A stretch of 64,000 nt of DNA from Gammaproteobacteria bacterium (GTDB taxonomy: Bacteria > Pseudomonadota > Gammaproteobacteria > JABABF01). The notes under the pieces are model-generated. The model had not been told where the DNA came from. It was given only the letters and a program-made list of their open reading frames with translations, and ran no database searches. The stretch covers positions 1,216,001 through 1,280,000 of the forward strand of contig OZ250153.1 in NCBI GenBank assembly GCA_965237805.1, in the 5' to 3' direction. Position numbers and translations under genes: made by a program. Of this stretch, positions 20,312 through 55,309 are shown piece after piece. Within the stretch, counting starts at the first letter, position 1, and every line of letters begins with the position of its first letter.

Positions 20312-20512
20312 GCGCGATGGCCACAGTGCTCGGTTTTGGGGGTGTACGAGACGGGTTGCCGCCCCCGGCGGCTCGCTGGGCGTGTCCATAGCGCCCATCA
20401 GCTATTATTGTGGACGGCAGTCTACTCAGGGGACAGCACGATGCCGACTGGCTATCGAGCGACCGTGACCATGTGGGCTTTAGGGCATCAGCATAGAGCA
20501 GGAGGCACTCCC

Positions 20513-21790
20513 ATGGTGTGTCGATTACAAAACCGCCCGAGGCGGCACCACATTTTGTCGCTGGTCACGGCTTTTGTGCTCAGCTGGGGCTTGCTCAGCG
20601 CTGTGCCCGTCGAGGCTGCAGAGAAAATTCATGTTGACAGAGAACTGCTTTTGCGTGTCAACCACAACCCCAGCACCCGTCTGCAGCTGATGCATATTTT
20701 GGGCATTGCAGGCAACCCGAACCAGCACGAAGTACGAGACATCAAATTGGGGGGCAACGCCAAAGTGGAGCTCGCCCGTAGCTTCATGGATCGAGCGGCA
20801 AGCCAATACCAGTACATCACTGCCACGACCTACGACAATTGCCGTGGCGTTGCGAACAGTCGCGACATCCAGCTCACACACGGTGTGGACACCGGTGTCG
20901 AGTGGTCCGTTGCGAACAGTTTTGGTGACAAAGTCAGCGCTGAGGCCGAGCTCCCCATAGGCGGCACTGCTTTTGGCAGCGGCCTCAGCGCTGACTTCAC
21001 CCTCGGCGACGGTGGCTCTGAGACGACATCCACCTCAGTCAGCGCTGAGCAGGAAGTGGACTTTCCCGACGTGCGGGGAGTCTACCTGTTCGCCTTGTAT
21101 GCGCACACGGTGTCCAGTGGCCAAGACTGGATCCCATTCTGGATCGATTTCATACCGAGCGACGACACGGCCATGACCTTTGTCTTCCGCGATTTTGATC
21201 CCCGCAACTCAAAGGCGGTCGTGACTTTCTATGTCGATCAGAATTGGAAAGGGGGATCTATCTCCTACCGAGTGGGGGATGTGATTCGACCCTTGCCCGA
21301 TGTCTTTCACAACAATATCGAGAGCATGAAGATCCCCGAGGATGTGCGGGTGCGCTTCTATGTCAACACACAGGACGATTGGCGTTTCTATACAGCGGGC
21401 TGGTTTGAGAGCCTCTACGACTGGAATAATCGCACTCAAGGCGCTGCCATCGAGGCTGACAAAAACGTCGAGAAGGACACGACGTGGGCTGAGGTGGCCA
21501 GCGCTTTTCCCGCCGCAGATCGCACATTCAGGATCCACGGGCGTATGAGGTTCCATCAGGTCGATGGCAAAGATGTCAAAATGCTTGCCTATCGATTAAG
21601 TGATGAGGCGAGTGCCGAGGCCTGCGCATCCTTGGAGCAGCCACTTGGGAGCCGCAGCCGTCGCCGCTCTGGCAAGTCAGACCACCACAAGAGAGGCCTG
21701 CCTTCCGACACCGGCCACGGCAAGCGCATATCACCGACCTATTTCAACAAGATAGTCGCCGCAGGGGATGTGCACAGTGTCAATCTCTGA
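20513..21790 (+). CDS. Secreted aerolysin/ETX-MTX2-like beta-pore-forming protein with beta/gamma-crystallin insertion (putative)
   Basis: GGAGG RBS before ATG 20513; Sec signal ending PVEA; Ser/Thr-rich alternating strands around an amphipathic hairpin (KVSAEAELPIGGTAFGSGLSADFT); crystallin-like VTFYVDQNWKG...NNIESMKIP. Confidence 0.55.
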   Translation: MVCRLQNRPRRHHILSLVTAFVLSWGLLSAVPVEAAEKIHVDRELLLRVNHNPSTRLQLMHILGIAGNPNQHEVRDIKLGGNAKVELARSFMDRAASQYQYITATTYDNCRGVANSRDIQLTHGVDTGVEWSVANSFGDKVSAEAELPIGGTAFGSGLSADFTLGDGGSETTSTSVSAEQEVDFPDVRGVYLFALYAHTVSSGQDWIPFWIDFIPSDDTAMTFVFRDFDPRNSKAVVTFYVDQNWKGGSISYRVGDVIRPLPDVFHNNIESMKIPEDVRVRFYVNTQDDWRFYTAGWFESLYDWNNRTQGAAIEADKNVEKDTTWAEVASAFPAADRTFRIHGRMRFHQVDGKDVKMLAYRLSDEASAEACASLEQPLGSRSRRRSGKSDHHKRGLPSDTGHGKRISPTYFNKIVAAGDVHSVNL

Positions 21791-22453
21791 GTGCGGCGGG
21801 TTGCTGTATGCGTTCAAGCGCCGGGCTGCGGGGCGAGACTGCGGCCGAGAGCGCTCGGTGGGATAGCTGAGGTGGCAAGCGGCTCGGCGTGGCCCGGCGT
21901 CGGTGATAGGCATGCCGAGCTGCGGCAACCGGGCTTGTCGGCACTGGCCTTGATGTCGGTATCGCTCGCCTTGTTCGGTTGTGCCGCCATGATGGCACCG
22001 GTGCGGGAGCCCAAGATTGTTGATCGTGGCGCTGTGAGCGTCATGGTCGAGCTGCCGTCGGCCAAGACCGCTTTATTGAAGCCCCATGAGCATATGGAGC
22101 GCTTTTGTGCGGCTCGCGCCACAGATTTCATCGCAGCGAAAGCTGTTGGCGCAGGCATCGGTGTCAGCGACGGCGGCGCTGCGGTCAAGGCATCGGATTC
22201 GATCGCAGCCAATGTCTTGGCCTTGGGCGGGCGCAATCCTGCCGTGTTGATCACGCGCGAATTGATCTATAGAGCCTGCGAGATGGCGATCAACATCAAT
22301 GCCGAGCCGGAGCAGGCTGCCGCGCTATACCTCGAGTTCTTAAAGCATGCCGACACGATCGCATCCAAGCAGTCGGGCGCGGGTAGCGCGGTGGCGGCAG
22401 CCACTTCTAGGGGGCCATCGGCAGGGGGGGCAGCAGCTACTGGTGACAATTAG
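21791..22453 (+). CDS. Hypothetical lipoprotein
   Basis: Hydrophobic stretch ending in LFGC lipobox (Cys at 21980); true start uncertain, possibly ATG 21953. Confidence 0.6.
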   Translation: MRRVAVCVQAPGCGARLRPRALGGIAEVASGSAWPGVGDRHAELRQPGLSALALMSVSLALFGCAAMMAPVREPKIVDRGAVSVMVELPSAKTALLKPHEHMERFCAARATDFIAAKAVGAGIGVSDGGAAVKASDSIAANVLALGGRNPAVLITRELIYRACEMAININAEPEQAAALYLEFLKHADTIASKQSGAGSAVAAATSRGPSAGGAAATGDN

Positions 22454-22737
22454 CGGGGGCAATCGCGATTGAGCGAGTTATATACTCCTTCTTTACAGGC
22501 TTCTATGGCACGATCTTTGTCTTCCCTCCTGACTGATGTGTTAGCTGATTTCCCGGATTCATATATCAGCTTGTGGGCAATAGCTGCCGTGGCACCTGTG
22601 ATCAAATGATTGTCCGGCTGCCACATAGAATTTAGAGAGCGGCCACAGTTGGCATAGCTCAGATGAATGGCGTCACCAAATCGTTTGCTGTGTTTTACAA
22701 ACTGTTGCTTAGTCTTGCCGCTAGGCGGGGCAGTCAA
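22450..22737 (-). pseudogene. AT-rich short ORF, probable gene fragment
   Basis: Abrupt GC drop, TTG start, 95 codons open, no recognisable motif. Confidence 0.3.
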
Positions 22738-53401: not shown

Positions 53402-53493
53402 CAGCTGATTTCCAAAATTTCGAAAGCCATCAGAAATTGCCCGCTTGAGAGTGCAGCGGCAGCTCGCTGGATGGCACCGTTAGTATACTGAAA

Positions 53494-55239
53494 TTACTGG
53501 CCTCGCCGGTAAACAGTCGCGCCTTCCTTGATCGTCTCCAGCACCATGATCTCGGCCAAGTTGGCGGTGTTGGTGGTCAGTGGATTGCGATCCAGAATCA
53601 CAAAATCCGCTAGTTTCCCCACTTCCAGAGAGCCCTTTAGATGTTCCTCGAAATGCTGGCTAGCAGCGTCGATGCTAACTGCGCGTAGCGCCTGTGCGAC
53701 GGTGGCTTGCTGTTTCCTGCCCAATGTTTTTCCGCTACGGGTTTCGCGATTGACAGCAGTCCAGAGCAGCAGCGCCATATTGGGCGGCACAACCGGGGTA
53801 TCGTTGTGAATGGTATAGCGGATTCCCCGCCGGGTGGCGGACTGTAACGGGCTGATCCGTTTGGCACGTGCATTTCCCAGTACCGAATCACGGTGCCAGT
53901 CGCCCCAGTAAAATGTGTGGGCGACAAAAAAGGATGGGATCATATTCAGCTCGTTCATCACGTCCAGCTGATCGTCGCGTACTGTCTGGGCGTGGATCAT
54001 GACCGTGCGCCGATCTGCCGCACCCTGAACCGCAGACACCTTGCTGACCGTGCGGATCAACTGGTCTGCGGCAGCATCTCCGTTGGCGTGTGCCAATACC
54101 TGCCAGCCCTCGGCAAAGAACTCGCTGATATAAGCTTCCAGCTCCTCATCCGACAGAATCGGATAGCCGCGATACTCTTTTGGCTTCCCGGCTGGCGGTA
54201 GGTGGTAGGGCTGGCTCAGCCAGGCCGTCTTGCCCTGTGGAGAACCGTCCAATACCAATTTCACACCGCCGACACGGAAGTGCTTTCGGTAATCCGATTG
54301 CGGCGAAAATTCACCCCTAAGCTGCTCCAGATACACCCATGCGGGGTAGGCAATAACATCCAGCTTGAGCCGATCTAGGCGAGCGGCTTCGCGCAGCAGT
54401 GCCAGGCCCGCCGGGTTTGCCGCTCCGTCCTGAACACTGGTAATACCATAGCGGGCGTAATAATCCTGCGTCTTATCCAGCAACGCCATACGGGTTTTGC
54501 GGTCAAGCTCAGGCAGAATTTTAAAAACCGGATGCATCGCCGTTTCTTCCAGCACACCGTTGGGCTCGCGATTGCCGGGCCCCCGGCGAAACGTCCCGCC
54601 TGCGGGATCTTCTGTCGCCGCCGTAATGTTGGCCAACTCTAGACATTTGGAGTTGCATACGCCCAAGTGGCCGGACACATGACGAATGAATACGGGATCT
54701 TCGGTTGAGATCTTATCCAGATCAAAGCGTGTGGGGTGGCGCTGTTCCACCAGTAGCGATTCATCGTAACCAGTGCCAATAATCCACTGGCCAGCAGGGA
54801 TTTTTCCCTTGGCGGCCCGCAGAACCCTAATGATATCGGCGACTTTTTTGACCGGTCCTACCGGTGCTGAGGCCACATTCTCGTAGGCCAAATAATCCAG
54901 TGTCATCATAAAATGACCGTGGGCATCGATAAATCCTGGGAGTAGTGTGCTGCCCTGTAAATCGATCACTGTGGCTTCTTTACCAGCTGCCATTTTTACC
55001 ATTTCTTCCATTCCCACAGCCAAGATCTCAGCGCCGCGCACGGCGATGGCCTCAGCGGTGGGCTGCTGCTCATCCATGGTGATGATGGTGCCATTGGTAT
55101 AAAGCCGAGTTGCCGCTCCAGTCTGTGTCGCAGAGTCGGCTGTTGTGATCGCTGTCAACATTTGGGGTTGACCACAGGCGGCGATCAACACGGTGGCACT
55201 CACTGCACTTAATGTTTTTAGCGTTGCAAGTAAATTCAT
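53494..55239 (-). CDS. Amidohydrolase 3 (YtcJ-like) lipoprotein
   Basis: IAAC lipobox, PGFIDAHGH, DGSPQG, HANGD, GSLEVGKLADFVIL; real start ATG 55239 or 55254, not 55824. Confidence 0.9.
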   Translation of the reverse strand: MNLLATLKTLSAVSATVLIAACGQPQMLTAITTADSATQTGAATRLYTNGTIITMDEQQPTAEAIAVRGAEILAVGMEEMVKMAAGKEATVIDLQGSTLLPGFIDAHGHFMMTLDYLAYENVASAPVGPVKKVADIIRVLRAAKGKIPAGQWIIGTGYDESLLVEQRHPTRFDLDKISTEDPVFIRHVSGHLGVCNSKCLELANITAATEDPAGGTFRRGPGNREPNGVLEETAMHPVFKILPELDRKTRMALLDKTQDYYARYGITSVQDGAANPAGLALLREAARLDRLKLDVIAYPAWVYLEQLRGEFSPQSDYRKHFRVGGVKLVLDGSPQGKTAWLSQPYHLPPAGKPKEYRGYPILSDEELEAYISEFFAEGWQVLAHANGDAAADQLIRTVSKVSAVQGAADRRTVMIHAQTVRDDQLDVMNELNMIPSFFVAHTFYWGDWHRDSVLGNARAKRISPLQSATRRGIRYTIHNDTPVVPPNMALLLWTAVNRETRSGKTLGRKQQATVAQALRAVSIDAASQHFEEHLKGSLEVGKLADFVILDRNPLTTNTANLAEIMVLETIKEGATVYRRGQ

Positions 55240-55309
55240 AGGCAAATTTTCCATTGGGGGATGCCTGAATCCTGCCCGAGGTGTCGCAGTGGTGGGTGGA
55301 GCATAGCGC

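Follow-up and report, generated by a model that had tools for sequence, protein, structure and literature searches.

Two small foreign islands, each between a working gene end and its displaced copy, point to gain by the cell's own recombination

In the element e14, inserted in icd, and in islands that occupy tRNA genes, the working gene ends in sequence of the element, and the original end, its orientation unchanged, is found at the far border. Integrase-borne islands of this kind usually carry the recombinase gene beside one border, and the identical cores of their repeats usually lie at the inner border. Streamlined small genomes often harbor variable islands devoid of an integrase or a transposase. 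A different class, insertions with long target duplication, comprises, according to Furuta et al. 2010 (PMC2853133; Nobusato 2000 is cited therein), inserts shorter than 20 kb that lack mobility genes and are bordered by direct repeats, some tens to some hundreds of bp long, which can overlap the 3′ end of a gene. The cargo is often a restriction–modification (R-M) unit or of deviant GC, the presence of both R and M genes inside the insert serves as a criterion, most cases come from naturally competent species, and an insertion-amplification-release cycle has been proposed. At Rhs, CDI and T6SS loci, new DNA enters a conserved region and the old 3′ end is shifted downstream; according to Kirchberger et al. 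2017 (PMC5361080), successive events form arrays and no integrase is involved. The reference list of that paper includes work on homology-facilitated illegitimate recombination (Jackson 2009, de Vries & Wackernagel 2002, Prudhomme 2002).

The window, i.e., the whole stretch of 64,000 nucleotides analysed here, belongs to a gammaproteobacterial genome of small size (1.73 Mb). Within it, a fadJ-type gene is followed by foreign cargo and by a second, orphan copy of its own 3′ end:

41399-42610, thiolase gene, upstream of the working fadJ
39119..41347, minus strand, working fadJ-type gene (enoyl-CoA hydratase and 3-hydroxyacyl-CoA dehydrogenase; Pfam ECH_1, 3HCDH_N, 3HCDH)
39117..39281, minus strand, proximal repeat, the repeated 3′ end of the working fadJ (GC 0.61, native-like)
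32534..38986, minus strand, cargo between the repeats, a giant gene of 2150 aa (SH3, M23 peptidase, 11 CARDB repeats; from Pfam and repeats)
32101..32268, minus strand, distal repeat, the orphan fadJ 3′ end (58-codon open frame, stop kept)
30148..32093, plus strand, second island beyond the orphan, a type II R-M unit (GC 43%)
30148-31296, plus strand, methyltransferase of the R-M unit (Pfam N6_N4_Mtase; PADLOC MTase_II)
31376-31678 and 31686-32093, plus strand, restriction endonuclease of the R-M unit, one gene split in two (PADLOC REase_II)
29294..29998, minus strand, rpe, native, on the far side of both islands (Pfam Ribul_P_3_epim)

That the 3′ end of fadJ is present twice had been claimed in a sequence-only reading of this DNA and is borne out where it was placed. 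The two copies, both on the minus strand, share ~83% nucleotide identity with one 3-nt indel, and their local alignment scores 89 as opposed to 10.7±1.4 (maximum 18.5) in 300 dinucleotide shuffles. As protein they are 92% identical, the orphan matching the FadJ C-terminus at 49/53 residues, with a score of 254 versus 27.5±4.1 and 0/500 shuffles as good. Both the reading frame and the stop codon of the orphan are preserved. Between the copies, differences fall on 21.5 of 33.8 synonymous sites and on 2.5 of 101.2 non-synonymous ones (pN/pS 0.04), 90% of them being synonymous. Neutral decay of an orphan after in-place duplication predicts ~61% non-synonymous differences and is rejected for this pair (P = 1e-7). 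Since the copies differ almost only at synonymous sites, they diverged as working genes in two lineages and were joined afterwards; by its selective signature, the pair shows the joining of the gene ends of two lineages. The GC content of both copies is native-like (0.61 and 0.63), which suggests that the donor was a relative and not the source of the low-GC cargo. The longest exact run common to the copies, GCCCGATCCA, is 10 nt long, starts at 39144 and was ranked by eye from the alignment, without a computed check; it lies inside the repeat, away from the inner border. The insert of 6.8 kb between the repeats of 165 nt holds nothing except the giant gene (GC 52-57%), which shows atypical codon use and a low coding score. 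A homologue in the sister species G001 is located at another locus, and no paralogue was found beyond the orphan. The R-M unit is placed outside the repeats, where the orphan adjoins the broken endonuclease gene ending at 32093, whose halves cover positions 27-112 and 124-233 of the 241 positions of the PADLOC REase_II profile.

The second island lies behind a tRNA gene:

51016..51092, plus strand, tRNA-Arg(CCT) (ARAGORN)
51073..51108, plus strand, proximal repeat, the last 20 nt of the tRNA and 16 nt past its end
51278..55254, minus strand, cargo of two genes (GC 57-58%; from Pfam, gene ends and GC)
51278-53401, minus strand, FMN/FAD oxidoreductase, cargo
53494-55254, minus strand, amidohydrolase, cargo
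55267..55302, plus strand, distal repeat, the orphan tRNA-Arg 3′ end
55310..56017, minus strand, nucleotidyl-transferase gene, native, convergent to the tRNA and abutting the orphan (Pfam NTP_transferase)

This pair, too, had been proposed before and holds: 29/36 positions are identical, and the score of 22 is reached by 0/300 shuffles (12.3±1.3, maximum 19). The repeat begins in the T-loop region and extends past the 3′ end, and its longest exact run, 14 nt as judged by eye, lies at the outer end, not at the inner border. The amidohydrolase start (55254) and the stop codon of the convergent gene (55310) leave a 55-nt gap, which is taken up by the orphan. Of the 41 tRNA genes of the genome, none but tRNA-Arg(CCT) has a match downstream that is not a further tRNA gene; in G001, where it is 99% identical, and in G003 it follows valS. 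Exactly two genes occupy the 4.2-kb insert between the 36-nt repeats. No counterpart of the amidohydrolase was found in G001-G003, the best G001 match of the oxidoreductase (47%) is at a different place, and no paralogues of either gene occur beyond the orphan. Both repeat pairs, of fadJ and of tRNA-Arg, sit exactly at composition borders, the cargo being lower in GC in each case.

The sequence-only reading had counted four such pairs in 35 kb, a density that proved overstated, as two of the four hold. The 3′ end of a PDZ gene was to recur on the minus strand at 20320..20432; this candidate is at chance level and not part of the feature. Its best nucleotide match within 20200-22739 falls elsewhere and is equalled by 37/300 shuffles. 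At the protein level, the match at 20300-20450 needs gaps and overlaps in part with the coding end of a plus-strand DUF4426 gene, and 36/500 and 40/500 shuffles do as well. A candidate orphan of the rpe 3′ end (29166..29199, minus strand; 34 nt at 74%) is marginal and was not accepted: in a search space of 170 nt, 1/300 nucleotide and 26/500 protein shuffles reach it, and E<=1 was not attained in a genome-wide blastn-short scan. The further observation that the displaced end abuts the next convergent gene is true by coordinates for fadJ, tRNA-Arg and the rpe candidate.

With e14 in icd and the tRNA islands, the two loci share a target 3′ end repeated directly at both borders in the same orientation; they differ in that neither the islands nor the genome has an integrase, that the targets are many and unrelated, and that an identical core is not apparent at the repeat borders. 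Like insertions with long target duplication, the islands are below 20 kb, lack a mobility gene and have direct repeats of >30 bp. In contrast to the near-identical copies of the recipient's target described in PMC2853133, the repeats of fadJ and of a thiolase gene in G001 are 83-93% identical and bear a purifying-selection signature, so that the two copies come from different lineages; in place of a single resident target, the fadJ repeats display a between-lineage signature. Nor is the cargo R-M alone. R and M genes were seen inside the insert at the locus of a luciferase-like gene; the R-M unit near fadJ is not enclosed by the repeats. The displacement at Rhs, CDI and T6SS loci likewise leaves an orphan 3′ end downstream without an integrase. 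Whereas PMC5361080 concerns variable toxin domains with immunity genes and a changed function, here the ends are those of housekeeping genes and of a tRNA, the protein stays the same (92% identical), and the payload is enclosed by the two copies. No immunity-like partner was seen for the fadJ orphan.

The earlier statement that no integrase or transposase is visible holds for the whole genome and the families searched. Six-frame matches to Phage_integrase are confined to XerD and XerC, with no fragment even at E<=0.01; Resolvase, rve and DDE_Tnp_1 have no match, no serine recombinase was found in the whole genome, and the open reading frames of the islands carry other Pfam families. Of competence genes, for which the same reading had proposed to look, ComEC and DprA are present. 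Both occur in non-competent species too.

Displaced gene ends recur in this genome. In a scan of 1060 genes queried with their last 60 aa, an orphan being defined as an open frame of <=130 codons at E<=1e-4, C-terminal fragments were found downstream within 12 kb on the same strand in 11 cases, upstream on the same strand in 4, on the opposite strand in 0 and far away in 2; with aa 31-90 as an N-terminal control, the counts were 0 downstream, 2 upstream and 4 far away. This genome-wide check, suggested beforehand, thus came out in favor of recurrence. Five of the 11 downstream orphans belong to tandem paralogue arrays of large genes and have another origin. The other six bracket low-GC cargo, defence-like genes among it, namely that of fadJ (52-57%) and of two MFS genes, an aldehyde dehydrogenase, a thiolase and dctM (38-47%); an acyl-CoA dehydrogenase (ACAD) represents a seventh case just under the cut-off. 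Cargo with a family match includes a pentapeptide protein, NorB with NnrS, a PDC-S06 ATPase and a ParA-like protein, and an AbiZ-like gene and a fragment of MmeI are situated just past two orphans. For the luciferase-like (LLM) gene and nnrS, the orphan is placed upstream of its gene, the cargo at the former being a XamI R-M unit (XamI endonuclease and Eco57I-type methyltransferase). Orphans are between 36 and 365 nt long or, at the extreme, comprise an entire MFS gene, foreign DNA flanks several orphans on both sides, and at least eight unrelated genes are targeted. Inner orphan borders are sharp, and neither a shared motif nor microhomology was seen at the joints. Several gene/orphan pairs are 95-99.8% identical, and the selective test gives weak or non-significant results for four diverged pairs (P = 0.035, 0.15 and 0.17; thiolase 0.002). 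Paralogues of the enclosed gene lie beyond the orphan at three other loci, in the array at 1691-1701 kb and at the FAA-hydrolase locus, where the order is FAA-hydrolase, large gene, orphan, paralogous large gene. The earlier proposal of repeated integrase-free capture beside core genes is hence supported and was even understated, with at least six further loci outside the window, while two of the four examples cited for it do not hold.

The arrangement also occurs in the sister species. G001 has a thiolase orphan of its own 234 nt behind the gene, with 334/360 identical positions and 22 synonymous versus 4 non-synonymous differences (P = 1.6e-6); by this signature it, too, shows the gene ends of two lineages joined and is a xenologous orphan. 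At two other loci G001 represents the empty site: its luciferase-like gene is 75 nt away from the upstream neighbor, compared with 3979 nt (orphan and R-M cargo) in the present genome, and its ACAD and thiolase genes are adjacent where the present genome has 5.5 kb more. Empty sites in relatives, a test proposed at the outset, thus exist for these loci; for the fadJ and tRNA-Arg islands none was found among the assembled genomes, each border within the window being a synteny break or a contig end in G001. In a metagenome scan, the closest FadJ was no nearer than 63%. Short-read contigs of the public runs X1 and X2, probably from the source sample, bridge 29983-32798 and 38543-39173, so that the arrangement is not an assembly artefact. 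Contigs specific for it have a depth of 16-25, and the contig of the fadJ body, which starts exactly at 39144, has 48-62, contig depths not being copy numbers. One contig has 9 letters before 39144, of which 8/9 match the orphan at the homologous place and 4/9 the working copy. A single crossover at the 10-nt run predicts this pattern. By these 9 letters and their depths, the contigs hint at a co-occurring strain without the islands.

Decayed integrase-borne islands, having entered site-specifically at a gene or tRNA 3′ end with a replacement end and later lost the integrase by deletion, would have the same architecture, with a restored target, the original end displaced and cargo that is foreign in composition. 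A gene end carried by an element is likewise maintained by selection, which fits the low pN/pS, the extent of the tRNA repeat resembles many att sites, and small genomes are generally under strong deletion pressure. This origin is nevertheless regarded as unlikely, given six-frame searches of the whole genome that found no tyrosine recombinase beyond XerC/XerD and no serine recombinase, a tRNA island whose two genes leave no space for a remnant, the diversity of the targets, repeat borders without an apparent identical core, and the G001 thiolase orphan with its just 234 nt between the copies. Somewhat less likely still is one-sided homology-facilitated illegitimate recombination with a linear fragment, in which a homologous crossover upstream is combined with an illegitimate joint of the far end within the resident gene end. 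It would yield the order gene, cargo, 3′ orphan, would account for the variable orphan lengths, the sharp, motif-free borders and the foreign DNA on both sides of several orphans, and would accord with the presence of ComEC and DprA; PMC5361080 proposes it for the 3′ ends shifted at T6SS and Rhs loci and describes it as rare in experiments. The orphan would then be purely resident sequence, and the resident end should equal it over all 165 nt, whereas the co-occurring strains, on thin evidence, match the working copy through 39144-39281 and branch only at 39144.

In-place duplication of the resident gene end, as a tandem or by insertion with long target duplication, followed by drift of the copies, is clearly true at the FAA-hydrolase locus and the 1691-1701 kb array with their cargo paralogues beyond the orphan, and would suit the pairs of 95-99.8% identity; R-M units with long direct repeats and no mobility genes are documented in PMC2853133. 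For the two islands it is improbable: the fadJ and G001 thiolase orphans differ from their genes mostly at synonymous sites, the former with frame and stop kept against the expectation of neutral decay, and neither the giant gene nor the tRNA-island genes have a paralogue beyond the orphans.

The explanation given most weight, though still a tentative one, is that the repeats of fadJ and of tRNA-Arg each delimit a small island gained by horizontal transfer and inserted at a hot spot just behind a core gene by integrase-free recombination via the gene end. Integrase-free insertion with the gene end as homology is best read as a variant of known phenomena. Incoming DNA from a related lineage would bring the gene end as it exists in that lineage, with the cargo behind it, and the general recombination machinery of the cell would join it into the resident gene end, without a site-specific recombinase, by a crossover within a very short stretch of identity. 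A circular molecule would need a single crossover for this, and a linear one, its cargo already flanked by the gene end on either side, would need two. The working gene would stay intact with a partly foreign tail, and the remainder of both gene ends would form the orphan behind the cargo. Later insertions at one gene end would move older cargo outward, the broken R-M unit beyond the fadJ orphan being a possible example. A Campbell-type crossover in short heterologous homology, as put forward in the sequence-only reading, is a candidate mechanism that agrees with the thin population evidence. An identity of 83% with exact runs of <= about 10-14 nt is far below what efficient RecA-dependent recombination uses, so the joint would be a short-homology or illegitimate one and rare. 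It also counts against this explanation that tRNA 3′ ends are classical integrase targets, and an integrase could have been cleanly deleted. Nor would one simple event of this kind produce the upstream orphans of the luciferase-like gene and nnrS.

It is conceivable, if rather doubtful, that the orphan is a working part, such that an island with the same gene end on both sides acts as a cassette that is taken in by two crossovers within this one gene end and can loop out again via its repeats. Any related cell could then take the island in, whatever lies downstream, and the repeats would play the part of att sites without an integrase, so that defence and accessory genes could move in a lineage that has lost all mobile-element recombinases. 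This would account for the duplication of 3′ rather than 5′ ends.

Two small foreign islands, each between a working gene end and a displaced copy of it, point to gain by the cell's own recombination. At no fewer than seven such junctions in this genome one can ask how integrase-free islands enter, and empty alleles, which would make the question testable, may be present in co-occurring strains of the public runs. If general recombination alone moves defence genes in this manner, island detection based on integrases would miss a class of transfer, and the 'pseudogene fragments' of core genes would be markers of recent gain.

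Two of the four places in the window at which a displaced, diverged second copy of a gene's 3′ end (an orphan) had been proposed to lie downstream of the intact gene (the working copy) hold, those of fadJ and tRNA-Arg, making that observation half right. The genome under study, G000, is a single contig of 1.73 Mb with 61.6% GC, the window being its positions 1216001-1280000. The region of the finding, which also contains valS, includes the following features.

Features of the region (window positions)
19697-20311, plus strand: DUF4426 gene
20336-22453, plus strand: two ORFs, function unclear
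22768-25302, minus strand: PDZ-domain gene
29294-29998, minus strand: rpe
30148-31296: methyltransferase of a type II restriction-modification (R-M) unit, 43% GC
31376-31678 and 31686-32093: restriction endonuclease of the same unit, one enzyme split in two
32101-32268, minus strand: orphan fadJ end
32534-38986, minus strand: gene for a 2150-aa M23/CARDB protein (the giant gene)
39119-41347, minus strand: fadJ, with its thiolase partner
51016-51092, plus strand: tRNA-Arg(CCT)
51278-55254, minus strand: FMN/FAD oxidoreductase and amidohydrolase
55267-55302: orphan tRNA end
55310-56017, minus strand: nucleotidyl-transferase gene, convergent

The GC content is 64-67% in core stretches, 52-57% in the giant gene, 43% in the R-M unit, and 57-58% in the tRNA island. 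The fadJ pair, 165 nt at ~83% identity with one codon indel, is beyond doubt: its local score is 89 as compared with 10.7±1.4 for 300 dinucleotide shuffles, and the orphan, translated in frame, yields the FadJ C-terminus with a stop at the homologous place. The tRNA-Arg copies, comprising the 3′-terminal 20 nt of the tRNA and 16 nt past it, match at 29 of 36 positions, the final 14 nt being identical (score 22 versus 12.3±1.3; none of 300 shuffles as high). Among the 41 tRNA genes, tRNA-Arg is the only one with a downstream match other than another tRNA gene; a match behind tRNA-Val(GAC) was rejected as an orphan, being a tRNA-Pro gene. No tRNA-Arg orphan was found in G001, the sister species, or in G003, of the same family. 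The PDZ match is at chance level, since it was equalled by 37 of 300 nucleotide and 36 of 500 protein shuffles; it requires gaps and overlaps the coding end of an opposite-strand gene. The rpe pair is a marginal, weak candidate (34 nt at 74%; score reached by 1 of 300 nucleotide and 26 of 500 protein shuffles). It was undetected in a genome-wide nucleotide scan, in which fadJ alone stands out among window genes, and the G001 intergenic DNA in the rpe region is not alignable and hence of no help.

Several properties of the enclosed genes were observed in passing. The two endonuclease ORFs (31376-32093) cover different parts of a single REase_II profile (positions 27-112 and 124-233), and the methyltransferase appears intact; probably, the restriction gene has been inactivated and the methylase survives. 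The giant gene contains 11 copies of a ~357-nt unit, 88-98% identical (32748-38513); in the 5′ half of the gene these follow a higher-order period of 1290 nt. The ORFs at 20336-22453, previously described as a toxin-like gene and a lipoprotein, are paralogues of G000 genes at 488-490 kb; their homologues in G001 adjoin the counterpart of that locus, and both flanks of 20336-22453 are synteny breaks relative to G001.

The two fadJ copies differ at 21.5 of 33.8 synonymous and at 2.5 of 101.2 non-synonymous sites. Under neutral drift of a duplicate formed in place, ~61% of the differences would be expected to change the protein; the observed share is 10% (P = 1e-7). Both copies have native-like GC, which rendered base composition uninformative as a marker of resident versus incoming DNA. 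The scarcity of non-synonymous differences and the native-like GC indicate that the two ends diverged within functioning fadJ genes, each in one of two related lineages, before being joined, and that the joining was recent enough for the orphan to have escaped decay so far.

A genome-wide scan of G000 indicates that such orphans recur. Genes were called roughly, by scoring ORFs for codon usage, and the last 60 residues of each of 1060 genes (minimum length 600 nt) were compared with the six-frame genome; matches were retained at E≤1e-4 if the open frame around them did not exceed 130 codons, queries with more than 8 hits being dropped. Residues 31-90 served as control.

Matches by location relative to the query gene
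Last 60 residues: downstream on the same strand within 12 kb, 11; upstream on the same strand, 4; opposite strand, 0; far, 2
Residues 31-90 (control): downstream on the same strand within 12 kb, 0; upstream on the same strand, 2; opposite strand, 0; far, 4

At a looser cut (E≤0.05, 25 kb, 1289 genes) the counts were 22, 11 and 5. Five of the 11 downstream hits lie in arrays with a paralogue of the enclosed large gene beyond the orphan and are ordinary tandem duplications. The remaining six concern two MFS genes, an aldehyde dehydrogenase, a thiolase, dctM and fadJ; an acyl-CoA dehydrogenase constitutes a seventh case just short of the cut-off (E = 4e-4). DNA of deviant composition is enclosed in all seven, with 38-47% GC in those outside the window. 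Among the cargo between gene end and orphan are a pentapeptide-repeat protein, NorB with NnrS, a PDC-S06-type ATPase and a ParA-like protein; directly past two of the orphans come an AbiZ-like gene and an N-terminal fragment of MmeI. At a luciferase-like gene the cargo is a XamI R-M unit, and the orphan is located upstream of the gene. The orphans of fadJ, thiolase and acyl-CoA dehydrogenase are flanked by foreign DNA on both sides, as expected if insertions had followed one another at a single gene end. Identities within the pairs span 76% to 99.8%; pN/pS of the other diverged pairs is 0.16-0.34, significant for thiolase only (P = 0.002), apart from weak significance for dctM (P = 0.035). The scan thus supports the general proposal of the sequence-only reading, repeated gain of cargo beside gene ends, and extends it to the whole genome. 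A C-rich signal or common end motif preceding the orphans, promising in three, proved inconsistent over eight.

Two of these loci have further peculiarities. G000 1134800-1146200 is a nested patchwork. Its two full-length MFS genes share 75% identity, and a 119-aa ORF combines an N-terminal with a C-terminal MFS piece; there are also a 485-nt repeat (99.8% identity) and a fragment matching rpiA at 86%. Here, nnrS and MFS orphan ends meet tail to tail with 2 nt between them, as though derived by copying a junction which is now split by norB. Behind the aldehyde dehydrogenase gene, ~1.8 kb of 40% GC (1632575-1634400) contain no ORF of at least 100 aa; the Pfam match of the enzyme ends at residue 388 of 486, and the insertion may have replaced or damaged the true end of the gene.

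Relatives were compared with respect to empty sites: G001, the one same-genus genome compared (290 contigs, ~76-78% nucleotide identity in core genes), and G002 and G003 of the same family. G001 has clean empty sites at two loci outside the window islands; within the window, each island border coincides in G001 with the end of a contig or a break in synteny. The G001 fadJ contig stops at codon 622, the remainder of the gene being unassembled. G002 and G003 are syntenic with G000 over the fadJ-to-valS block only and are of no use as empty sites, and a metagenome scan with FadJ returned no close relative (best identity 63% among 80 loci kept). The amidohydrolase of the tRNA island was not found in G001-G003; in G001, the best match of the oxidoreductase is 47% identical and at another place, the giant-gene homologue (37-48% at the amino acid level) follows homologues of genes at 1195-1198 kb, and norB occupies a different site. 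With its genes not found or located elsewhere in the relatives, the cargo is not ancestral at these sites. G001 has a thiolase orphan of its own: 365 nt, 234 nt behind the stop, identical at 334 of 360 positions, the differences comprising 22 synonymous and 4 non-synonymous ones (P = 1.6e-6). The process hence extends beyond a single genome and can leave an orphan behind with next to no cargo. By eye, these 234 nt (within contig C66, 4554-5152) hold two similar, putatively hairpin-forming repeats.

The absence of integrases and transposases noted in the window extends to the genome for the families searched, XerC and XerD excepted. Six-frame searches gave two Phage_integrase matches, identified by NCBIfam as XerD and XerC (the latter slightly under cut-off), and none for Resolvase, rve or DDE_Tnp_1. 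ComEC and DprA are present, which would permit natural transformation; their presence alone does not demonstrate it.

Only two public runs, both from a single sample that probably gave rise to the assembly, contain the stretch as short-read contigs; a third run labelled as the same species had no contigs placed on it. Contigs span 29983-32798 and 38543-39173 without a difference, and the island arrangement is therefore real. Arrangement-specific contigs have depths of 16-25 and the fadJ body contig 48-62, these being contig depths rather than copy numbers. The fadJ body contig begins exactly at 39144, the start of a 10-nt run common to both fadJ copies; of the 9 letters ahead of it in one contig, 8 agree with the orphan at the homologous place and 4 with the working copy. 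Other contigs lead from 32100 and 30012 into sequence for which a search of G000 gave no match. A near-identical co-occurring strain thus seems to carry fadJ as the working copy to 39144 and orphan-like beyond, with the islands replaced by other DNA, although nine letters and depths are thin evidence of limited weight. Variant contigs differ by ~14% in rpe (29681-29798) and others by <1% in fadJ (40805-40871), so the sample seems to hold, besides a near-identical strain, a relative at a greater distance, which is of the same order as that between the two fadJ ends.

A single crossover of a circle at the 10-nt run would yield the pattern of the co-occurring strain; the same would be expected from two crossovers of a donor piece already bearing the gene end on either side. 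A one-sided event of homology-facilitated illegitimate recombination, the process proposed for serial 3′-end displacement at T6SS and Rhs loci (Kirchberger et al. 2017, PMC5361080), would not produce the pattern at 39144, thin as the latter is. For R-M units lacking mobility genes, insertion with long target duplication has been described, mostly in competent species, and an insert-amplify-release cycle has been proposed for them (Furuta et al. 2010, PMC2853133); in contrast to the diverged ends found here, the repeats reported there reproduce the recipient's own target almost exactly. Among small variable segments, 10-18% are reported to have direct repeats, mostly <30 bp, at their flanks (Touzain et al. 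2010, PMC2884548). A limited search of open-access text found no account of cargo flanked by xenologous ends of housekeeping genes in a genome lacking integrases. With recombination-driven insertion inferred as the mechanism, the feature is classed with known insertions of this kind, from which it would differ in form.
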